Virus record (IMG/VR): IMGVR_UViG_3300044837_000097
Coordinates: 1-64,000 of that record
Strand: one strand, 5' to 3'
DNA length: 64,000 nt
DNA from: a virus
Shown: positions 390-24,200 of the stretch, piece after piece
Position numbering within the stretch: the first letter of the stretch is position 1
How the letters are laid out: each line of letters starts with the position of its first letter
Made by a program: the position numbers and the translations under genes
The notes under the pieces: model-generated
Database searches by the model: none
What the model saw: the letters and a program-made list of their open reading frames with translations, nothing else
What the model was told of the DNA's origin: nothing

Positions 390-418
390 TTGACACCCAC
401 CCGGTGTTGTGGTACAGT
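390..418 (+). promoter_or_regulatory. sigma70-type promoter, probably leaderless transcript of RHH gene
   Basis: TTGACA-17nt-TACAGT, 7 nt before ATG 426. Confidence 0.7.
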
Positions 419-425
419 CGGAACC

Positions 426-635
426 ATGAACAGCCCGATGGCAAAATTTCGTCTCCCGCAAGAGTTGCTCGACCACATCAAGCGCCTGTCCGCTGAGTCC
501 GGCATCCCGGTCTCCGAGGTCATTCGCGCTTGCATCGTCCGCGCGCTCCCGTACGTCGAACAGAAAGCCAAAGAGGTAGTAAGCAGTGACGCCGTATATT
601 CTTCGCCTTCCCAAGGTAAAAACAAAACTGTATGA
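426..635 (+). CDS. ribbon-helix-helix DNA-binding protein
   Basis: MAKFRLPQELLDHIKRLSAESGIPVSEVIRACIVRAL fits the RHH strand-helix-helix pattern; the upstream part of ORF 42..635 is translated repeat. Confidence 0.8.
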   Translation: MNSPMAKFRLPQELLDHIKRLSAESGIPVSEVIRACIVRALPYVEQKAKEVVSSDAVYSSPSQGKNKTV

Positions 636-961
636 ACCGCCGCAGCTTCCTCACTTTTCTGGGGGTGGGCATGGCGGCAGTGGTGGTCGCCCCAGTGGCG
701 GTCAAAGCTGTGGTTCCATCCTCGTTTGACACATCAGATTTTCACGAGTGCACATGTGGCGCGCCGAAGCCCTTAATCGGGACGGCAGAAGAGTGGTGTC
801 CTGTGCACGGGAGTAAAGAATGTCTCGAATCCATTACAGCATCCACCAAGGAGTACGCGGACTACGAGTCCTTCTCGGACTTCCAAATATCGAGTGCGAT
901 ACATGCGAGCGTGAACGAAGCCGCCGCGCAACTCGGGTATCGAGCGGGACTGTCGATTTAG
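632..961 (+). CDS. twin-arginine (Tat) signal protein with C-terminal capsid-like peptide
   Basis: MNRRSFL + hydrophobic stretch; CxC..CxxH motif; C-terminus resembles the spliced capsid protein. Confidence 0.65.
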   Translation: MNRRSFLTFLGVGMAAVVVAPVAVKAVVPSSFDTSDFHECTCGAPKPLIGTAEEWCPVHGSKECLESITASTKEYADYESFSDFQISSAIHASVNEAAAQLGYRAGLSI

Positions 962-1500
962 AACCTGCACGTAGCTACGACGGGAACTCCATCACAGACC
1001 TCAACCGTTACCCAACGTCGATTGAAGGCTGGTCATCGTACAAGACATATTCTGGTCTCGAAGCGCCGCGCGGTTCCAACCGCTCGTTCTTTCAGTATTC
1101 GCCGCTTCCGTCTAGCATAGTTGGATACGACGGGGTCACGAACGAGTTCAACAGATATTGTTCCGAGATGGGCGTCCAGTGTACAATCACGATGAACCCT
1201 TTGAACTACCAACAGTTGATGATGTTCAAAGTCGTGGGCAAGGACGACGTGCTGATTTCCCACCAAGGCAAGTCCCGAATCATGGCACCCGGCGAGACTT
1301 GGACGTTGGAGACCACGCGTATCGACGCGTTGAAAGATTTCAGAAGGGTGGACTGTCTCCCGCGCATTTCAAAGATGGTGAACGGGAATATACATTTCAA
1401 AGATGGTGAACGGGAATATAATGAGACACAACCTTTATGCGTACACAGCGCCGGGAGCAAGCTACCCGCCGTATGTTTCCGTCAATGTGGAAAGCGATGA
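820..1500 (+). CDS. hypothetical protein (start uncertain; 3' end affected by 28-bp duplication)
   Basis: long ORF filling the gap between neighbours; no recognisable motif. Confidence 0.35.
   Translation: MSRIHYSIHQGVRGLRVLLGLPNIECDTCERERSRRATRVSSGTVDLEPARSYDGNSITDLNRYPTSIEGWSSYKTYSGLEAPRGSNRSFFQYSPLPSSIVGYDGVTNEFNRYCSEMGVQCTITMNPLNYQQLMMFKVVGKDDVLISHQGKSRIMAPGETWTLETTRIDALKDFRRVDCLPRISKMVNGNIHFKDGEREYNETQPLCVHSAGSKLPAVCFRQCGKR
1365..1420. repeat. perfect 28-bp tandem duplication
   Basis: CATTTCAAAGATGGTGAACGGGAATATA x2. Confidence 0.95.
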
Positions 1501-1642
1501 CCACACAGTAGAGGTCACTGTGCGTTCCCCGGCGAAGGCTGACGGGTCGTGTGGCGAGACCGCAACTTTGAAGTTGTCGCCCCAAGAGTTCTACGAGTTG
1601 GCGAGTCGCCTTCACGGCTTCGTTTGCACGAGCGGCGCATGA
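1421..1642 (+). CDS. hypothetical protein
   Basis: ORF coupled to next gene by ATGA overlap. Confidence 0.55.
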   Translation: MRHNLYAYTAPGASYPPYVSVNVESDDHTVEVTVRSPAKADGSCGETATLKLSPQEFYELASRLHGFVCTSGA

Positions 1643-1821
1643 GCAAGAAGAACATCATCAGCAAGACCAAGGTTGACAACAACACCGTTCACGTTCGCTT
1701 CGAGAACCCGGACGGTCACAGAGTTTATGAGTACCGGGGTTCCGCGATGCGCGCGATTATGCGCGGCAAGGACCCGGCAGGACTCACGGGCGGAAGGCTC
1801 GTGGAGCATAAAAAGCCGTGA
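1639..1821 (+). CDS. KTSC-like small protein
   Basis: VHVRFENPDGHRVYEYRG resembles the KTSC L-x-V-x-F..G..Y-x-Y pattern. Confidence 0.45.
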   Translation: MSKKNIISKTKVDNNTVHVRFENPDGHRVYEYRGSAMRAIMRGKDPAGLTGGRLVEHKKP

Positions 1822-2108
1822 CATCATTTAGATTTTTAACAGCATCCGAGTTATCGGAAAGAGGTTGGCAGATGGTTAAGTCAAGCGAGTCATACAAGGT
1901 TTACTTGGAGAAGTCCGAGGCTGCACCGGGCGGCGTGCACAGCACACAACCGGAAGGCCGCGCGGGACTTCCGCCAGTTTGTACGGTGACAGAGGCCAAG
2001 GAAGAGAAAGGCGTAGCTATCGAGTGCACTCGCCACCAGACTGGGTTGAATCGTTATCCCATCAACGAGCACGAAGAGAAGCACAAGACCCACGGTCCAA
2101 ACAACTAA
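1818..2108 (+). CDS. hypothetical protein
   Basis: GTGA overlap with the previous gene. Confidence 0.45.
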   Translation: MTSFRFLTASELSERGWQMVKSSESYKVYLEKSEAAPGGVHSTQPEGRAGLPPVCTVTEAKEEKGVAIECTRHQTGLNRYPINEHEEKHKTHGPNN

Positions 2109-2117
2109 GGAGCCGTC

Positions 2118-2279
2118 ATGACCACATTCCATATTGTCGCCAGCCTCGCGCTGGTCGCCTTTGGCTTCGGGCTGGGGCGCATCAAGAACACCAAGGGTTT
2201 CTTCACAAAGGCGAAGGCAGACGCGGCGGCTTTAAAGGCCGCAGCAGCGAAGGCCGAGGCAGAAGCGAAGAAGCTGTAA
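2118..2279 (+). CDS. small membrane-anchored Ala/Lys-rich protein (53 aa, below ORF-track cut-off)
   Basis: AAGGAG RBS; MTTFHIVASLALVAFGFGLGRIK... Confidence 0.7.
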   Translation: MTTFHIVASLALVAFGFGLGRIKNTKGFFTKAKADAAALKAAAAKAEAEAKKL

Positions 2280-2287
2280 AATAGTTC

Positions 2288-2316
2288 TTGACAAAGCACG
2301 GGCGCTGGTGTACCAT
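2288..2316 (+). promoter_or_regulatory. sigma70 promoter at start of tRNA array
   Basis: TTGACA-17nt-TACCAT. Confidence 0.75.
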
Positions 2317-2335
2317 TGTTTCAAGTTTGCACTAC

Positions 2336-2410
2336 GGTGTCGATGGTGTAGCGGCAGCACATGAGATTGTGAATCTCATAGTATGGGTTCGACCCCCATT
2401 CTTCACCCCA
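2336..2410 (+). tRNA. tRNA-His(GTG)
   Basis: G-1, C73, CCA; anticodon arm TGAGA-TTGTGAA-TCTCA; two acceptor-stem mismatches. Confidence 0.85.
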
Positions 2411-2420
2411 AAAATAGTGC

Positions 2421-2449
2421 TTGACAAACGCAGAAAGTTCTGATACACT
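2421..2449 (+). promoter_or_regulatory. sigma70 promoter
   Basis: TTGACA-17nt-TACACT. Confidence 0.8.
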
Positions 2450-2491
2450 GGTTTTAGAGTCAAGAAATTATTGACTAAGAAAGAAGGACAA

Positions 2492-2719
2492 ATGAAGATA
2501 GCCACGCTTCTTGCTGCTTTACTGATTGGTGGATTTGTTTTCGCGCAAACGCCAGCACAAGGCGACCACATAGTTCGTCCGTACGTAAAGAGAAACGGCA
2601 CTATCGTTGCTCCCCACTATCAGACGAACCCAAACAAAACTCAGCGGGATAACTACAGCGCGACGGGCCGATACAACCCCCACACGGGACAATCAGGAAC
2701 TAAACACCCGAAGCGTTAA
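2492..2719 (+). CDS. small exported protein (YxKxNGTxVxPHY..NP..G..GT type)
   Basis: Sec signal peptide, GAAGGA RBS. Confidence 0.75.
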   Translation: MKIATLLAALLIGGFVFAQTPAQGDHIVRPYVKRNGTIVAPHYQTNPNKTQRDNYSATGRYNPHTGQSGTKHPKR

Positions 2720-2729
2720 AAGTTTCAAT

Positions 2730-2803
2730 CAGGAATTCTGATAGTGGTAGTCTACGGGCGTCGGAAGCCTGAGGTGGTCGTTCGATTCGACCATTCCTGA
2801 CCA
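2730..2803 (+). tRNA. tRNA-Pro(CGG)
   Basis: C1-G72, A73, CCA; loop GTCGGAA. Confidence 0.85.
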
Positions 2804-2906
2804 GTTTCATGCATCAAGGCATTGAGACTATTAAAGAAGAAATTTCTAAATGTGGTGTTGTTTGTTCGAACTGTCATAGAATTCGAACATTCAATCGCAC
2901 AGGAAT

Positions 2907-2994
2907 CGGGGCGTAGGCGGGTAAATGGAAGCCCTCCGCTTTTGGAAAGCGGTGCCTACGGGCCTTGGGTGTTCGAGTTACCCCGTCCCGACCA
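2907..2994 (+). tRNA. tRNA-Pro(TGG) with long variable arm
   Basis: C1-G72, A73; CCGCT-TTTGGAA-AGCGG; extra arm GCC-TACG-GGC. Confidence 0.75.
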
Positions 2995-3003
2995 AGTTTC
3001 AGC

Positions 3004-3078
3004 GGAGATAGGGTCAGTTGGTAACGACATGCCCCTGTCACGGGTAAAGTGCGGGTTCGATTCCCGCTATCTCCGCCA
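3004..3078 (+). tRNA. tRNA-Asp(GTC)
   Basis: cloverleaf, loop CTGTCAC, G73, CCA. Confidence 0.9.
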
Positions 3079-3087
3079 AGTTTCAGT

Positions 3088-3162
3088 TCCAATCTGGTCT
3101 AATGGTAGGACACCTCACTGTTAATGAGGAGGGTCCACGTTCGAGTCGTGGGGTTGGAGCCA
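3088..3162 (+). tRNA. tRNA-Asn(GTT)
   Basis: CCTCA-CTGTTAA-TGAGG, G73, CCA. Confidence 0.9.
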
Positions 3163-3166
3163 ATTT

Positions 3167-3522
3167 TTGTGGAGCCGTTAGGTTAATCCACAGACGATAC
3201 CCGCAGGGGTGCTCGTTTCAGTTCAGGCCCCTCGGGGCTGTTCGTACTGACGAGCGCCTTTGAGGGAGCTAACGGTGATAACGAGGCGTCTAAAGCACGC
3301 CTACCACAAAGTAGCACACGCCGAAATAACGCGAAAGCGTCGAACATATCGGGCGGCTACTATAATGTTGTCGCGACAGTAACCGAAACGGGCGTCGTCA
3401 TGAAGCGACCCGGTCTCCTCATGAGTGGTGGCGGGCTTGACCTGCAAAGGGACACAAGGTTACGGCGGGGTGAAACCCGCCCAAAGCGCCTCGGCGGGGC
3501 GCGTTGATAAATGCCGCCCGGA
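3167..3522 (+). ncRNA. large structured ncRNA of unknown family
   Basis: no credible ORF; many stems, GNRA-type loops, potential pseudoknot CCGTTAG/CTAACGG. Confidence 0.55.
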
Positions 3523-3533
3523 TTTGTTTCAAT

Positions 3534-3619
3534 CCGCTGGTGATGTAATAGCAGCCATGAATGCCTTAGAAGCATTTGGTCGAAAGACCGTGAAGGTGCA
3601 ACTCCTTCTCAGCGGACCA
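3534..3619 (+). tRNA. tRNA-Leu(TAG)
   Basis: AATGC-CTTAGAA-GCATT, long variable arm, CCA. Confidence 0.9.
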
Positions 3620-3640
3620 TTTTTGTACGTACATTAAGAA

Positions 3641-3675
3641 GGGGGAGCCGTGAACTCCCCCGACTCTTTCAGACA
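3641..3675 (+). promoter_or_regulatory. degenerate copy of the endonuclease-leader pseudoknot, no downstream ORF
   Basis: GGGGGAG-CCGTGAA-CTCCCCC followed by CTTTCAGAC (pairing partner broken). Confidence 0.6.
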
Positions 3676-3687
3676 TCTAGTTTCAGT

Positions 3688-3766
3688 GGTCGCGTCGGGA
3701 AAACGGGATATCCCAATGGCGTTCTAACCCATACAAAAGTAGGTTCGAATCCTACCGCGACTACCA
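3688..3766 (+). tRNA. tRNA-Arg(TCT)
   Basis: loop GTTCTAA with C:C mismatch closing; canonical T arm; CCA. Confidence 0.75.
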
Positions 3767-3772
3767 TTTTGT

Positions 3773-3847
3773 GGGCTGCTCGTATATCGTATAATGCACA
3801 GCGCTACGAACGCTGGGAGCGGGGTTAGACTCCCCGGTGGCCCTCCA
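3773..3847 (+). tRNA. tRNA-Arg(ACG)
   Basis: CAGCG-CTACGAA-CGCTG, CCA. Confidence 0.88.
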
Positions 3848-3856
3848 AGTTTAATT

Positions 3857-3943
3857 CGCCTGCTGGTGGAATTGGCAGACACGCCGGATTCAAAACCCGG
3901 TGCCCGAGAGGGCGTTAGAGTTCGAATCTCTAGTTGGCGACCA
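3857..3943 (+). tRNA. tRNA-Leu(CAA)
   Basis: loop TTCAAAA, long variable arm, CCA. Confidence 0.9.
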
Positions 3944-3975
3944 TTTTGAAATCCATTGACTACGGTCAGGTGATT

Positions 3976-4395
3976 ATGAACAGCAACCAAAGAAAAGATG
4001 CAACGCTAGGAATGCCTCACGGCACCGCGAGTGGCAGACTTCGGAAGATGATTTTGTTCAATCTTTTGAAAAAGCACGGCGAGAATTCCTGCCATGCTTG
4101 CGGAAAGCCGATTGATTCTGTAGATGCTTTGAGTATTGAGCACAAGAAACCGTGGGAAGGGGTATCGGCTGACTTGTTTTGGGATTTAGAAAACATAGCG
4201 TTTTCGCATCTTCGATGTAATACTCCGAACCGCCCTTACAACAATGGTGGGTGGAACAAGAAACCAGCCCCAGAAGGGATGGCGTGGTGCATCGGACATC
4301 AAGTATTCGAACCAGTCGAAAACTTTTGGAAGAACGCAAGTTTTTGGAATGGTCTTGAGAAGTACTGCAAGACGACCAAGATTCGAAATAGATAA
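3976..4395 (+). CDS. HNH homing endonuclease
   Basis: CHACG..LSIEHKKPW..NIAFSHLRCN. Confidence 0.85.
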   Translation: MNSNQRKDATLGMPHGTASGRLRKMILFNLLKKHGENSCHACGKPIDSVDALSIEHKKPWEGVSADLFWDLENIAFSHLRCNTPNRPYNNGGWNKKPAPEGMAWCIGHQVFEPVENFWKNASFWNGLEKYCKTTKIRNR

Positions 4396-17353: not shown

Positions 17354-19492
17354 ATGGCAGAGTTTGAACCGGAAGTAGTTGGCGCGCGTGACGAAAAAGA
17401 GGCGCAGATTGCTGCGTTGTATCAGGACCCAGCAAACGAAATCACCGCCGAGAACACGTATATCGACAGCGAGACCGGAACCATTCAGCTCAACGACGAA
17501 GCGGCTATTCGCCTCGTATTGACCGACACCGACACGGCTGACAACTTTATCAACGTCAACCAGTGGGCATCAGGCTGGACGATGGCGGACTTGTTGTACC
17601 AGTCCCCGGTATCCGGTGACGGCTCGGGAAACACAACCGACGTTGTGAGTTCTGCCGTTCCGAAGTTCATGGTATCGAATCACATCTCGTCGATTGTGCC
17701 GAAGATTATGGGCGGCATCTTCTACGAGGACCCGTGCTTCATGCTGCGTCCGTCACCGGGCACCACGCCGCAGGTCATCCAAGCGAAGACCGCCGTCTTC
17801 ACTTTTCAATTGAAGGCTATGCGCTACGAAGAAGAAGTAGAGCGCGGACTGGAACAGATGGCGTTGCTTGGCACCGCAATTTGGAAGTGGGGCTATACCG
17901 AGTACGACAAGACGCTCAAGAAATACAAGCGTTACGCCGACCAGCAACAGATTACTGACGGCGGCGAGACGGTGTCGATTGACACGCCGTCGTCGGACGA
18001 CTTCGAGATTGAATTCTACTCGAAGAAGGTCTCTCACCCGTGGATTAAGTTCTGCGACCTCCGCACGGTCCTTGTGGACCCGGGATGCCGCGTGGGCGAC
18101 ATCCGCGCAGCGAAGTGGGTTGTCTACCGCGATTACGCGACGTACGACGACCTGAATAAACTTCGCGGGCTAGAAGGCTACAACATCCCAGAAGAAGATG
18201 TTCTCAAGGCGATGTTCATGCGCCCGGTCAACCCGGGTAAGCCCGACAACATTTCGATGACCCTGCCGGAAGGCATGATGGGCTACTTGCAGCACAGTCG
18301 CCCGAGAAACATCAAGACCTCAGCAGACCCGACTCGCCAACCTCTAGAAATTCTGGAGCGTTGGGATAATGAGAAGGTCATGGTGGTCCTGATTTATAAC
18401 GGTCACAACATTCTTATTCGCAACGAAGCGAATCCTTACGGGAAGATTCCGTTCTTCTCGGCAAACTGGCGCAACATCCCGGACAGCTTCTACGGTCAGG
18501 GTCTTGGCCTGCTAATCGGCAGCGAGCAAATCGTTGAGCAAGGCGTAACAAACCTCGCACTCGACCTGCTTGCCTACTGCTTGCAGCCCGTGGCTCTACG
18601 TAAGAAAGGATTCAACGCACCAACGCAGAACACACGATGGGAACAGGGCGGCATTATCGACGTTGAAGAAGACGTTGAGAAGGCGTTCAAGTTCCTACAA
18701 ATGCCGACGCCTCCGCAAGAAGCGTTTGCCTTCATCCAGCAATCACAGAGCGCGGGCGCTGCCACATCAGGCGCGAACGAGCAGGTTATGCAGGGCGCAG
18801 GGCACGCGGGCATTTCGACGACAGGCATGAGAAGTGGTACTGGCGCGGCGGCTGTTATCAGCGCGAACGCCAGCCGTCTCGACGGCCCAACGGGCCGTTT
18901 CGTCCGCCAAGTGTTCGAGCCGTGGTTGCATCAGATGGACGATTTGAACAACGACCTTCTACCGACTCAAGTCATGAAGGATATTCTTGGCGAAGAGTTG
19001 GGCGGGTCGATTAAGCTGGACCACATCGAGTACAGAAACTCGTCGGTCAAGTATGAAGTTCTGGCGGGAGCCAACCTCGGTGCCAAGAAGGAAATGGCAC
19101 AGGCTCTACCGTTCATCATTCAGTTGATGACCAACCCAGTCTTCGTGAAGAACGCGAACGACGCCGGATACCAGTTCGACGCAATCGCAATCTTCCAAGC
19201 GTTCGTGGACGCAGCAGGCTGGAAGTTCTCTCAGGCTTTTCTACGCAAGATGTCGGACAAAGAAGCCCAGCAGTTTCAGGCGAACAGTCCAGCAGCACTC
19301 GCGCAACAGCAGGCCAAGAACGCACAAGCCGCCGCAGACCAGAAGTTCAAGCAGGAACAGACTCTCGAAAACCAGAAGCAACTCGGCAAAGCCGGAAACG
19401 AGGCGGTACGCGCTTCTATCGAGAAGGCTACACTGCCAGCACTTATGGGTACACCACAAGTCGCTGGTTTTGGCCAAGTCACGGCTTTATAA
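17354..19492 (+). CDS. portal protein
   Basis: 712 aa after terminase; VDP..A.W and PDSFYGQG motifs of podovirus portals. Confidence 0.88.
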   Translation: MAEFEPEVVGARDEKEAQIAALYQDPANEITAENTYIDSETGTIQLNDEAAIRLVLTDTDTADNFINVNQWASGWTMADLLYQSPVSGDGSGNTTDVVSSAVPKFMVSNHISSIVPKIMGGIFYEDPCFMLRPSPGTTPQVIQAKTAVFTFQLKAMRYEEEVERGLEQMALLGTAIWKWGYTEYDKTLKKYKRYADQQQITDGGETVSIDTPSSDDFEIEFYSKKVSHPWIKFCDLRTVLVDPGCRVGDIRAAKWVVYRDYATYDDLNKLRGLEGYNIPEEDVLKAMFMRPVNPGKPDNISMTLPEGMMGYLQHSRPRNIKTSADPTRQPLEILERWDNEKVMVVLIYNGHNILIRNEANPYGKIPFFSANWRNIPDSFYGQGLGLLIGSEQIVEQGVTNLALDLLAYCLQPVALRKKGFNAPTQNTRWEQGGIIDVEEDVEKAFKFLQMPTPPQEAFAFIQQSQSAGAATSGANEQVMQGAGHAGISTTGMRSGTGAAAVISANASRLDGPTGRFVRQVFEPWLHQMDDLNNDLLPTQVMKDILGEELGGSIKLDHIEYRNSSVKYEVLAGANLGAKKEMAQALPFIIQLMTNPVFVKNANDAGYQFDAIAIFQAFVDAAGWKFSQAFLRKMSDKEAQQFQANSPAALAQQQAKNAQAAADQKFKQEQTLENQKQLGKAGNEAVRASIEKATLPALMGTPQVAGFGQVTAL

Positions 19493-19926: not shown

Positions 19927-21228
19927 GTGGACAAAATGAGTTCAATCACTCGCGAGCAGGTCTTGGCTATCAAGACATTTGCCGAAGTTGCAAAGCTGTT
20001 GAAGGAAAGTCCGGACGAGATGCGCCCGATTATGAAGGGTGAAGTTCTAGTCCACATCCAGTCGCTCATCAATGCGCGCAACGTGCAGCTTGCTGGGCAG
20101 GAGACCGAGGTTGACCGCCAACTGGCGTTGAACAACCCTCCTTCGACGGAAGAGTTGGCCGAGCAAGCCGCAGCCGTGGCAGCAGAGTCTGCCGCTGTTG
20201 TGCCGCCTGTCGTCGAGGCGACGCCGCCAGCCACAGTTGACCACACCGAGGAAGACGCGTCGTGGAAGACCGAAGGCGTGACCGTGCAGCGTGATGCGCA
20301 AGGCAAGATTGTTCGCATGGTCCAAGAGTATCAGGTTCGTGATGATGACGACTCTCCGATTGGTCGTCCGACGCACCTTGAGGCCCGTACGCCGTACGAG
20401 TTGCTCTCGAAGCAGCGCGTGGCTCACGAGAACGCGACCCGTGCGTTCCACCGCTTGAAGAAGCAGAAGTTGACCTTTAAGCAGACCGAAGAAAATCGTT
20501 TGCTGACTCCCGCCGAGATTAGTGCGGCAGCAACCAAGGCACTCGAAGGCAAAGACGCCGCCGAGGCCGAGAAGATTGTACGCAGCGTGCTTGAGAACGA
20601 CTTCAAGCAGAAGGAAACCGCGCTGCTAAATGAACGCGAATACGCGGAAGGACAGAAGATTGGAAACACCTTCATCCGCCGCCACTTGCACGACTTCAAT
20701 GCGAACGAAGCAAACTTGAAGGCGCTTGGTGAGTATCTTCGCGAGCATAACATGGAATTTACGTTGGACAACTTGGAGGCCGCATTCATCGACCTCCGAG
20801 ACCAAGGTAATAAACTCGCCGCCGTTAACGCGGCGGTAACAAGACCAGCGGAGTCGGCTAATACCCCGGCAACCGCGACTCCCGCAGCAGCGCCAACGTC
20901 GGAACTCCCGGCGACGGCACCGGCAGCGGCAGTGACACCACCAGTAGTAGCCCAACCAGCGGCTGCCGTAAGCCAGCCAGTAGTTGAAGCAACGGTATCT
21001 ACGCCTGTCGCGCCGAATCCGGCACCAGCGACCCGTAGACCGGGAGTGAACGGGAGCATTACTCCGGGAACGATGAGCGCACATCGTCCGGGAGCAGTGG
21101 ACCCGGCGCTCGCGCGCAAAGAGTTTATGAAGGAACTCAAGGCCATGACATCGGACCAAATTCGCAAGAAGCTAAACGACTCTCAGTTCGTGAAGCAGCT
21201 TGAGACGTACGGCGTCAAGGTTCGCTAA
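19927..21228 (+). CDS. scaffolding protein
   Basis: helical, Ala/Pro-rich linker, short C-terminal helix, directly upstream of capsid. Confidence 0.75.
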   Translation: MDKMSSITREQVLAIKTFAEVAKLLKESPDEMRPIMKGEVLVHIQSLINARNVQLAGQETEVDRQLALNNPPSTEELAEQAAAVAAESAAVVPPVVEATPPATVDHTEEDASWKTEGVTVQRDAQGKIVRMVQEYQVRDDDDSPIGRPTHLEARTPYELLSKQRVAHENATRAFHRLKKQKLTFKQTEENRLLTPAEISAAATKALEGKDAAEAEKIVRSVLENDFKQKETALLNEREYAEGQKIGNTFIRRHLHDFNANEANLKALGEYLREHNMEFTLDNLEAAFIDLRDQGNKLAAVNAAVTRPAESANTPATATPAAAPTSELPATAPAAAVTPPVVAQPAAAVSQPVVEATVSTPVAPNPAPATRRPGVNGSITPGTMSAHRPGAVDPALARKEFMKELKAMTSDQIRKKLNDSQFVKQLETYGVKVR

Positions 21229-21271: not shown

Positions 21272-24200
21272 ATGTCTGGACCAAATCCAGCAGCATCAAA
21301 CGTAGCAAACGTCCTAACGGCGCAAGCCATCATCAAAAAGGTGACACTCTAAAACAACTTGACTGAAAGAGTCAAATGTGCTAGAATAGACAATCTCTTC
21401 TTATTGACTTGAAACCTGAAACGGCAACAAGGCGGAAGCCGAAAGGCACCGTGAGAGACTAAGCGAAGAGACGCCGAAAGGCGATGCGATAGTCCGTTCT
21501 TCCGAGAAAACAATCGGAAGAAGCAAGCAGAAATGACTTGCTCTCTGGAATACACCAGAGTAACAAAACAGCTTCGACAAGGAACTTATCCCTATCGCGT
21601 AAGCGAGCAAGTTCCGAAGGAATGACATGAAGGTACGAAACATCGTTGGACAGACTTTTGGGAGACTGGCCGCCCAGAGTGCCGCAGGCAGTAACAGCAG
21701 GGGGCGAGCACTGTGGTTGTGTCGTTGTTCTTGTGGCAAAGAGAAAATAGTTCTCGGAGACCACTTAACACGAAAGGATGCCAAAGGCGTAAGGTCTTGC
21801 GGATGTTTACAGCAAGAGAATCGTACAAAGCATGGAGCATTTTCTTCAAATTCAGATATAAAATACCACGTTCGTTATTCTCTTCTGGCAGGCTTGAAGG
21901 ACAGAAGCCGCAGAAGGGGCTACGAATCAGACTTAGAAATCTCCGACATACCCGAGATTCCTGAGCTTTGTCCCGTTCTTGGGACTCGTTTGAGTTTGCA
22001 CCGAAACAGCCACGGCAAAGGAAAAGGCAGAGGCAGAAATAGACAAGACGCCTCTCCATCAATAGACAGATTTAATTCAAATCTTCCGTACCTTAAAAAG
22101 TACAAAGATAATCTGTGTATTATTTCGTGGCGAGCAAACAAGCTAAAGTCAGACGCGTCTCTTGTCGAGATGAAGAAAGTGGTGGAATATCTTGAAAATT
22201 GGGGCACTCAGCAGAGTGAAAAATCTTCTCTAATTGACTCGAAACCCAACCAAATCGGGGGCAACGAGGCGGAAGCGAATAGCGCCGTGAGAGACTAATC
22301 GAGAAGACGCCGAGAGGCGATGTAATAGTCCGGTCTAACAAATGAAAATTGTTAGAGGCAGGCGGAAACGACCAGTCCCGTGATGGGCGTCACGGTAACA
22401 TATACGAACCTAAAGGGTAATACAAACGCCTTCGTTGGAGCAGCAGAGCGTCGTGTTCAGGGCCTTCACATGGGCATCAACCGTACGTTCTTCCAGTACA
22501 ACACGCTATCGGGTGACATCACCCAGAAGGCGGACGGTACTGTAGGCTCGCCGGAAACCATCACCCAGTTGAGCGCACCCGCTCAAATCGGTGAGTGGAA
22601 AAACTAAGTTATTCCACTATAAACTCAGCTATATCAAATTAGGTCTTGACAAACCGCAAAGGCTCTTGTTAAGATGAGTTTGAGGAAACTCTAAATGGAA
22701 AAGAAAGCGTGGCCGTATGTGGCCGGATTGCTAGATGCAGAAGGGACAATCCAGATTGGCGTCGATAGAAGGCCAGACGGCGTAATCGGGATGTCGCTTC
22801 AAATTATCATCACTAATACCGACACTCGACTGATGAAGTGGCTTAGTTCAAACTTCGGGGGGAAGTTCTACCGAAGGAAGAACACTCGCGGCTTTTCATC
22901 GAGCGAGTCTCCCGATATTTACTTTTGGTGGCTTTTCGGTAAAGAAAAACAAGAAGCATTTCTTCTCGGTATCCTTCCTTTTCTCAAAACAAAGAAACAA
23001 GAGGCCCTTCTGGGTCTTGAGTTTGTTCGTTTGGTCGGGTGGAATAAAGAAAGAAAACTTCAAATAGCGGAAGAAATGAAAGCCGCTAAGGTTAGTGATG
23101 TAGAGAAAGATAGGCAAGTTAATCTGACAAGGCTTACCCCCGCAGAAGACTCGGCATACGCCGCAGGGCTTTTTGATGGGGATGGTTCAATCGGCTCAAG
23201 CGTAGAGATTACTCAAAAGAGGATTCTTCTGATGAGGTGGCTCTTGATGTGCTTTGGCGGAAGGTTTAACCAACGCAGCATGAACGGCGGTAAAACTTTT
23301 TTCAGGTGGCGTCTCTCAGGAAAGAAAAACAAAGAGTTGTTTCTTCTTGATTTGATTCCTCATCTTGTTATTAAACGGGACAGTGCAAGAGCATTGCTCG
23401 CTTCTCTTAGAGCATCAAAGAGTTCCGCAACGACTGACATGTTGAGTACTTCGCAAGAAGTGAAGACACAGTCTGAACTTACTGGTGACAGTAAGAGCGA
23501 CCCTGTGAAGACACAGGACTCCATAAACAAAAAGTAACTTCGCGAACTTTTCGTCGTTCGCAATTGCAGCAGCAATTGACGAACTCGTTGGCAACAGCGC
23601 CGTGGAACTTGGCTACCAAGCTGGGCAGTCCATCAGCGAGTTGTACAGCGCAGTAGCAGACAGCGCCAACTCGGTTGACTCACAGGTTAACCAGTCATCG
23701 TTGCTTGCATCTCCGTACACGCTTGACCTTGGCACCATCCGTGAGTTGAAGCAGCAGCTTGTTTCAAAGAACGTGTTGCCGTGCAAGCGCGGTATGTTCT
23801 TGGGCGCAATTAGCCCGAACGTGTTGGGCGACATTTACAATGCAACGACTGTGAACAACAGCATCGTTGACTTGTGGAAGTACGAGAACATGGAGAAGTA
23901 CGACCAGATGGCAGGTTCGGACCAGAACAAGGTCATCGTGTTGCCGGGTACCAACATCGGCTTCATGCAGACCCCGTTCGTGACCACGACTGCTAACTAC
24001 CAGTCAACAGGCAAAATTGGCTACCGCACATACGTGTTCGGTAACTACGCCATGATTGGTGTGTGGTTGCAGGTACCGGGCGACACCGACCTTGACGACG
24101 GTGACTGGAAGACGATTGACTGCCGCGTCGTAACCGACGCGCCGATGTCATCGTTTGACCCAGTTTCGACGATTGGCGGATGGTGTTCGTACAAATTTCA

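Follow-up and report, generated by a model that had tools for sequence, protein, structure and literature searches.

The window analyzed here, bases 1-64000 of the 82,715-bp uncultivated virus record IMGVR_UViG_3300044837_000097 (record completeness 81%), carries close to its start a small open reading frame (ORF; 632..961) that is part of a large, unnamed family of phage mini-proteins. These proteins combine a signal of the twin-arginine translocation (Tat) type and a variable linker with an old partial copy of the major capsid protein (MCP) of the same phages, and the overall explanation that we favor, with slightly better than even confidence, is that the host Tat system exports the combination, for which mimicry of a capsid contact helix is put forward as a tentative role. 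The small ORF is laid out as follows.

632..961, plus strand: small ORF, 109 amino acids; Tat signal, then Cys/His block, then capsid-like helix, with a TAG end (from the ORF list and the sequence)
632..706, plus strand: Tat-type signal peptide, residues 1-25; N-R-R-S-F-L, Gly/Ala/Val-rich h-region, then A-P-V-A-V-K-A
749..823, plus strand: Cys/His block, C40-x-C42 ... KPLIGTAEEW-C56-x-x-H59 ... C64
815..958, plus strand: capsid-like segment, residues 62-109, homologous to MCP residues about 84-132
959..979, plus strand: the TAG, then six codons (NLHVAT) over which the family-profile match continues

The ORF list and the sequence agree exactly with an earlier description made from the letters of the window without database searches (the sequence-only reading), which had noted the MNRRSFL start, a CxC..CxxH segment and a capsid-like C-terminus followed by TAG. 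The N-terminus is MNRRSFLTFLGVGMAAVVVAPVAVKA, and the C-terminus is ...KEYADYESFSDFQISSAIHASVNEAAAQLGYRAGLSI (...LGYRAGLSI at the end).

Homology to the major capsid protein

The capsid origin that the sequence-only reading assigned to the C-terminus is upheld by both pairwise and profile comparisons. BLASTP aligns the small ORF to the capsid exon with 15/32 identities (E 9e-7), and the local alignment score of 73 was reached by none of 2000 shuffled sequences (28.1 +/- 4.6, maximum 55), so that the alignment stands up to the shuffled controls. When all six reading frames of the 82.7-kb record are translated, the small ORF matches nothing but itself better than the capsid exon (77 vs 43 for the next one), and HMMER recovers the capsid from the six frames of the record with an E-value of 4.9e-4. 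When nine family members are aligned by hhalign with 14 intron-less capsids of relatives, the probability is 97.9% (E 3.2e-13) over 47 columns, in which ORF columns 58-104 correspond to residues 86-132 of the 341 capsid residues. A profile of 105 family members matches the capsid in all 11 related records (E 2.2e-17 to 5.8e-20) and the split capsid of the window itself (E 8.2e-15 at 23533-23661), and in the reverse direction, a capsid profile compared with 486 ORF fragments picks out the small ORF in each of six genomes (E 3.9e-13 to 5.1e-6). The independent curated model TIGR04387 (N4-gp56 major capsid) matches 4 of the 105 small proteins (best E 4e-6), with the match in one of these, P0047, covering model positions 77-123 of 324. 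These comparisons show that the last ~48 residues of the small ORF are truly homologous to residues about 84-135 of the phage's own MCP. At the DNA level, the two segments share 54 of 96 bases and only 14 of 32 third codon positions, so that the resemblance is old and resides in the protein, and is not that of a recent copy.

In the capsid gene, the matched region is divided between two exons.

22569..22598, plus strand: last bases of capsid exon 3 (LSAPAQIGEW); matched sequence ahead of intron 3
23539..23661, plus strand: first bases of capsid exon 4 (NFANFSSFAIAAAIDELVGNSAVELGYQAGQSISELY...); carries the bulk of the match

The matched stretch of exon 4 reads NFANFSSF...LGYQAGQSISELY from 23539 (ending LGYQAGQSI), and the intron between the two parts holds a LAGLIDADG ORF (22695..23537). 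The claim that the segment spans the insertion site of intron 3 but is intron-free in the small ORF is borne out, as is the observation that the frame carries on past the TAG: the family profile aligns to base 979, where relatives read SIxxLH or SIxxLY.

The capsid gene is located ~21-24 kb downstream of the small ORF, after a portal gene (17354..19492) and a gene in the scaffold position (19927..21228). This position, the match to PHROG 1357 ‘major head protein' (E 7.9e-4) and the nearest ESM Atlas clusters (Phage_capsid_4, Phage_capsid_3 and N4-gp56, at 0.97-0.98) identify its product as the MCP, distantly of the N4-gp56 / Phage_capsid_3-4 kind. Pfam returns nothing for the capsid, and the capsid profile finds only kinesin noise (E >=0.009) among Protein Data Bank sequences. 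P0138, one of the capsids or capsid fragments recovered in the family search described below, gives 0 matches to sequences of solved structures, and the family profile finds among these only N-termini that resemble Tat signals (E >=0.18). The capsid itself is well conserved, with 72-96% identity among 52 relatives and one outlier at 52%; 151 related viral loci were found with it, and a search for more diverse capsids produced sequences that are all at least 73% identical among the matches listed (120 of 267).

The capsid is 341 amino acids long, without a delta domain. In two published accounts, the order of the HK97 fold is N-arm, E-loop and P-domain with a long spine helix, the latter being a hallmark of the fold and overlain by the E-loop of the neighboring subunit (PMC5644958, PMC8569155). 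From their position, MCP residues 84-135 most likely run from the close of the E-loop through the spine helix.

A family of Tat-signal mini-proteins

A word-index search with the small ORF yielded four homologues with 43-61% identity. A profile built from nine sequences, including the window ORF, was then compared with 1.84 billion representatives and recovered 230 clusters at E <=1e-3, 88 of these at E <=1e-10; the window ORF, itself one of the nine profile-building sequences, matches at E 8.8e-39. Among the best 150 of the 230, 104 proteins of at most 140 amino acids have both the R-R-x-F/L N-terminal motif and the helix motif. The other 46 include capsids or capsid fragments (P0123, P0132, P0138, P0142 and P0145), signal-only proteins (for example, P0133, P0144, P0146-P0149 and P0152), two fusions to an upstream gene (P0035 and P0039) and, among others, truncated pieces. 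Together with the matches of the family profile in related records, this search substantiates the conservation, in many relatives, of the fusion between the Tat signal and the capsid peptide.

The common plan, mostly within 75-135 amino acids, consists of the Tat signal, a variable and often Cys-rich linker and the capsid-like helix. The family consensus starts with MNRRxFLKxLGxGxAxxAVAP and ends with IGEYADYxNFSxFAIAxAIDExVxxAAxELGYRAGxSIxxLY. R3 and R4 are invariant in all 105 aligned members, Y78, F81, S82, D91, A98 and L101 are conserved at >=90% (93-98% for each of Y, F, S, D, A and L), and the consensus sequences of family and capsid agree at 38 of 53 columns. The linker spans from 7 residues after the signal, in the minimal 76-amino acid protein P0094, to nearly 60 residues, and often carries a four-ligand Cys/His motif, of which there are no fewer than three kinds. 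The Cys/His block of the window ORF, an optional insert and possibly a metal site, is kept in P0002, P0004, P0005 and the nearest relative of the window, G012, and is deleted in P0003; other family members have different Cys-rich inserts, or none, in its place. In 10 pairs from five genomes, dN (the nonsynonymous substitution rate) in the capsid-like part is 0.37-0.85 and dS (the synonymous rate) ranges from 0.98 to saturated, which, with ratios that are rough, indicates purifying selection on a fast-evolving protein.

The window ORF has every feature by which we define the family: a Tat-type signal, a linker, a segment homologous to MCP ~84-137 and a length of 75-140 amino acids. A tree of the 53-column segment (122 rows) has 0 well-supported branches and allows no conclusion on a single versus repeated origin. 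Searches for related loci with P0047 and with P0028 found nothing among viral contigs, the same search with the window ORF found G012 only, and a back-translated N-terminal pattern hit 0 stretches of the genome contigs. Within the portions of the literature that were searched, there is no description of a Tat-signal capsid-fragment protein or of a family of exported capsid fragments.

The signal and the predicted structure

The signal of the window ORF contains the motif N2-R-R-S-F-L-T8, which fits the S/T-R-R-x-F-L-K pattern, and by inspection, the h-region FLGVGMAAVVVAP is followed by V-A-V-K-A | V, a c-region of the A-x-A type. The Tat model TIGR01409 scores 20.0 bits, above the NCBIfam curated cut-off of 16.7, and matches 61 of 105 family members at E <=0.01. 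The family member P0006 clears the Pfam Tat model PF10518 (24.9 vs cut-off 22.7), and P0008 is labeled ‘TAT pathway-exported protein' by JGI, a single source that names a single member. ORF 632..961 is the only Tat-like ORF of the record.

AlphaFold2 (AF2) with the 105-row alignment predicts an N-terminal helix at residues 3-27, a linker without structure and further helices at 81-89 and 92-108, with a predicted local distance difference test (pLDDT) score of 91-97 over the final 20-30 residues. Database searches with the small ORF itself return little: Pfam reports only the sub-threshold Tat signal, PHROGs has no match, neither of these nor NCBIfam has a model for the family, the phage collection contains no matching protein, and a DNA search with window 400-4000 produces tRNA-sized matches only. 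The best ESM Atlas score, 0.83, is only a lead, and structure matches have template modeling (TM) scores <0.5.

The N-termini of P0133, P0144, P0146-P0149 and P0152 carry a near-identical signal (MNRRSFFKFLGIGAATAVVAPK) in front of unrelated C-terminal parts. These sequences give the Tat-type signal the appearance of a movable module among these phages.

Comparison with known systems

Compared with bacterial Tat signal peptides (TIGR01409 / PF10518), the small ORF has the same R-R-x-F-L motif, Gly/Ala-rich h-region and basic residue with V-K-A in the c-region. The usual passengers of bacterial Tat signals are cofactor enzymes or folded host proteins, whereas here the predicted export would concern a fragment of a virus shell protein.

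Among the closest parallels is Ccm of SaPIbov5, a satellite-encoded homologue of the whole capsid protein that forms capsomers in the cytoplasm. The likeness (PMC8569155) is that a mobile element keeps a second, diverged copy of an HK97-fold capsid protein for a purpose other than the main shell; the difference is that the small ORF is phage-encoded, has an export signal and contains only ~50 capsid residues, that is, a fragment and not a full-length homologue forming capsomers. The C-terminal ~50 residues align to residues 84-135 of the MCP of these phages, distantly of the N4-gp56 / Phage_capsid_3 / Phage_capsid_4 kind, but comprise one-seventh of the fold: an HK97-fold MCP has an N-arm, E-loop, P-domain and A-domain in at least ~300 amino acids, and the small ORF has only the part in its residues 62-109. 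With only ~50 residues of the fold present, it is neither a capsid protein nor a Ccm-type protein.

A short internal capsid segment can act alone as a recognizable unit. The Gol peptide, a short segment of the T4 capsid protein gp23, is sensed in the cytoplasm by the Lit protease and triggers defense; the Gol peptide resembles the small ORF in this respect but differs in being part of the capsid gene, with no separate gene, and in setting off defense in the cytoplasm, where it is no tool of the phage.

Other capsid fragments

A scan of genome contigs for an invariant capsid motif led to two contigs of one metagenome-assembled genome. One of these (L216, contig 59 of G044) is 99,937 bp long, the size of these phages, so that its binning says little about the host, and encodes a fusion of a second type.

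L216:1501-1755: second-type ORF, 85 amino acids; starts with MNRRNFLGLLGGG..., with the same kind of Tat signal and MCP residues 253-335

The match to capsid residues 253-335 has an hhalign probability of 94.6% (E 7e-8) and a BLASTP E-value of 2e-9, which means that different pieces of the capsid have been joined to the same kind of signal. The capsid part has internal deletions, and the ORF is flanked by two glycosyltransferase-like ORFs; a word-index search with it found only itself. Its segment GYRTYIMGKDSVI bridges the GYRTYVFGNYAMI of the capsid and YTTYVMGKDAVI, a block found ahead of the helix in 16 family members. When 14 of the 16 blocks are made into a profile of 13 columns, it matches capsid residues 256-268, a match equaled by 3 of 2000 shuffled capsids in what is a post hoc test.

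A further capsid piece may lie directly behind the small ORF.

961..1131, plus strand: region B, in the -1 frame, within ORF 820..1500; possible second capsid piece, MCP ~15-67

ORF 820..1500 is in frame 1, and the final 141 bases of the small ORF are part of it as well; GGGAG stands six bases ahead of the ATG at 820. Region B (..GWSSYKTY..GSNRSFFQYSPL) is kept in G012, in the same -1 frame relation, though the DNA no longer aligns. Aligned with capsids by hhalign, the window and G012 versions, two sequences only, match residues 15-67, that is, the N-arm and first strand, with a probability of 62.7% (E 7.2e-5); single-sequence tests are weak (E 0.41 and 0.071). Region B may be a second capsid-derived piece, which we regard as a lead. 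By inspection, neither the window nor G012 has an X-XXY-YYZ slippery site at the junction for a -1 frameshift from the small ORF into frame 1. In G012 (L113), three tandem copies of an 18-bp unit (ELLKNV in frame 1) closely follow the decayed small ORF, at ~330-385, and hhalign places these copies on the KELIPNLKG region of the capsid.

Gene neighborhood

Three genes are found next to the small gene in the window or its relatives.

426..635, plus strand: ribbon-helix-helix (RHH) gene (Pfam RHH_1, E 1.5e-4, 22.0 bits vs a cut-off of 20.5)
L084:668-1498 and L085:627-1487, with equivalents in L087 and L088: coiled-coil gene (..LRDQSNVQS..PSDHVWVNKKLSGVY..); its stop touches the start of the small gene
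Window 973-1401; L113:605-835; L084:2074-2322; L085:1823-2278; L087:1233-1481; L088:1085-1342: gene C (..N.YC.E.GVQC.ITMNP..)

The TGA of the RHH gene overlaps the ATG of the small ORF (ATGA), and upstream of the RHH gene there are a promoter-like site (390-418) and an array of 17-bp repeats. In four relatives, a coiled-coil gene encoding 210-290 amino acids takes the place of the RHH gene directly before the small gene; its product has no PHROG match, and the gene was not found in the 81%-complete record of the window. In P0039 and P0035, the gene callers merged the coiled-coil and small genes.

Gene C lies 3' of the small gene in all six genomes examined (the window, G012, G009, G005, G001 and G024) and has no Pfam or PHROG match. 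The possibility that it is another capsid derivative was ruled out (hhalign probability 1.6%). Some copies of gene C end in WFVFYQ or NFFKY. At window 1365-1420, where gene C meets ORF 1403..1642, there is an exact 28-bp tandem duplication (CATTTCAAAGATGGTGAACGGGAATATA, two copies), which shifts the frame, so that the end of gene C here differs from that in relatives. ORFs 820-1497, 1403-1639 and 1639-1818 have no convincing Pfam or PHROG match.

The architecture of the small ORF is superficially like that of i-spanin or antiholin-like lysis proteins, which have an N-terminal membrane anchor and a helical part in the periplasm and are encoded in lysis cassettes, beside a lipoprotein partner, holin or endolysin. 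No lipobox ORF is present among the listed ORFs of 1-2400, with no search for lysis genes made in the remaining genome.

Proposed role and alternative explanations

Under the favored explanation, the host Tat system would translocate the small protein, already folded, through the inner membrane. Folding ahead of transport, perhaps around a metal, would be in keeping with how often Cys/His inserts occur, and the [A/V]-x-A site after the signal in many members, including V-K-A here, suggests cleavage. The product would be a capsid-helix peptide of 50-85 amino acids, outside the cytoplasm or held at the membrane, and would bind the normal partner of the capsid helix, either the E-loop or N-arm of a neighboring subunit or a host factor that recognizes the helix. 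Inspection of their spacing shows that the conserved residues shared with the capsid line up as a hydrophobic stripe along the helix. In the capsid, this face probably packs on the P-domain, under the E-loop of the neighbor, and the small protein would offer it no partner in cis; a conserved face without a cis partner favors a binding mimic. We put forward tentatively, as the most likely role though at well below even odds, that the small protein is a free-standing mimic of the subunit-contact surface of the capsid. A predicted complex of the G005 capsid with the mature G005 small protein has a score of 0.00 which, being without controls, bears neither for nor against binding.

A number of observations weigh against this proposal. 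To begin with, contact between an exported product and capsid assembly in the cytoplasm is hard to picture. The small ORF scores 18.3 with PF10518, under the cut-off of 22.7. The AF2 model of the capsid from 14 sequences has a pLDDT of 30.6, so that the identification of the spine helix rests on position and on the coordinates of the N4-gp56 model. The small proteins vary greatly (29-76% identity of single members to the window ORF) compared with the capsid (72-96%), with no sign of co-variation. Furthermore, the gene is patchily distributed. Among 27 related records, seven of which are >=90% complete, it is full length in G001, G004, G005 and G009 and forms an intact 93-amino acid ORF in G024; G013 has one open frame, in which the signal and the helix are matched separately, without the middle, and G003 has a weak, divergent match. 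Of the seven near-complete records, only G001 and G009 have the gene and five lack it (G002, G006, G007, G008 and G010), and a broader family profile gives the same 2/7 result; in all 16 records of the sister capsid clade, only the capsid is matched. Absent from 5/7 and 16/16 records, the gene is accessory and dispensable.

The remaining contrary observations concern the state of the window copy. It is shortened: of 102 aligned relatives, 98 run on for 3 or more residues and 88 for 5 or more, and the family-profile match spans 632-979 with one TAG inside, so that the TAG at 959-961 appears to be a recent truncation. In G012, the small gene contains an in-frame TAG and a TAA. The dN/dS between the window and G012 copies is ~0.9 overall and ~0.83 in the capsid-like part (dN 0.33, dS 0.39), a value that comes from 81 codons with one broken partner in a pair that looks mosaic, 88.7% identical to about base 906 and unalignable beyond that point. 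The first part of the gene is nearly identical in DNA. Recoding of TAG was considered and rejected, given that TAG is the stop codon of 9 of 55 long ORFs and of 24 of the 109 that encode 60 or more amino acids, and that none of the 31 tRNAs is a suppressor.

All this makes a decaying remnant the strongest of the alternatives: the family would perhaps once have been functional, and the window copy and its closest kin would be in the process of being lost and now inactive. The loss of the conserved tail to the TAG, beyond which six codons still align, the stops in G012, the early end of P0003, which lacks the Cys block, the dN/dS value and the absence of the gene from most near-complete relatives are all in line with such decay. 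Nevertheless, the start codon and the complete signal of the window copy are intact, its ATGA overlap with the RHH gene persists, and 48 of the ~53 capsid-like positions are still there; three other family members stop at the same column. On balance, we consider this explanation rather unlikely. The suggestion of the sequence-only reading that the segment could be a relic holds for the window copy and its nearest kin, with the marks of decay just listed, but not for the family as a whole. Sequence evidence of this kind indicates that these copies are eroded and the family at large is intact; without its last helix turn or turns owing to the TAG, the window copy may be weakened or heading for loss.

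Under another scenario, which is distinctly unlikely in our estimation, the protein does its work ahead of export, or without being exported at all, inside the cytoplasm or on the inner membrane face, as a dominant-negative capsid fragment or decoy that caps the capsid subunits of competing related phages or occupies a host sensor of the capsid helix, the Tat signal being a tether or disposal route. That the small gene shares an operon with an RHH gene resembling a repressor, close to the end of the genome, fits this scenario, given that genome ends are a typical place for exclusion or counter-defense genes. The positions conserved in the family are also those of the capsid, as expected with a shared binding partner, and there are precedents for capsid homologues that disturb assembly, such as Ccm of SaPIbov5 (PMC8569155). 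Conversely, the N-terminal Arg-Arg and short h-region predict that the C-terminus is outside the cytoplasm, a location that fits poorly with the decoy, assembly-inhibitor and tether functions that the sequence-only reading had proposed. Moreover, we know of no defense system that senses this capsid family, and the assembly of the resident phage itself would suffer too.

Still less probable is that the protein is an awkward cargo that blocks or modulates the host Tat translocon or the envelope, for which capsid fragments would be handy, repeatedly recruited material. The signal is indeed the constant element, found also on the unrelated C-termini listed above and, in the same kind, on the other capsid fragment (residues 253-335), the linkers are highly variable and the small ORF is the only one of its record with such a signal, but this explanation does not account for the capsid-like conservation over more than 100 diverged members or for the confident, regular helix predicted by AF2 in place of a misfolding-prone piece. 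Least probable of all is that these phages repeatedly join pieces of their own capsid gene to a Tat signal, so as to make exported or Tat-engaged mimics, and that such a mimic binds a host recognizer of the capsid helix, such as an immune sensor, and Tat drags the complex out or parks it at the translocon, so that capsid sensing is disarmed, which, if true, would be a counter-defense principle without precedent.

Implications

If the family acts as its build suggests, that is, as exported mimics of a capsid helix, this would be the first case in which a virus exports part of its shell protein from a gene dedicated to that part. The finding bears on the recognition of capsid surfaces, on phage activity in the cell envelope early in infection and on the birth of genes from fragments of essential genes. 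A protein of ~60 amino acids with a defined signal and a likeness to a defined capsid element makes a testable system, and with the family, several hundred metagenome proteins labeled ‘hypothetical' acquire a name and a profile. Even if the function is trivial or the window copy is dead, the family records the recurrent reuse of capsid fragments.

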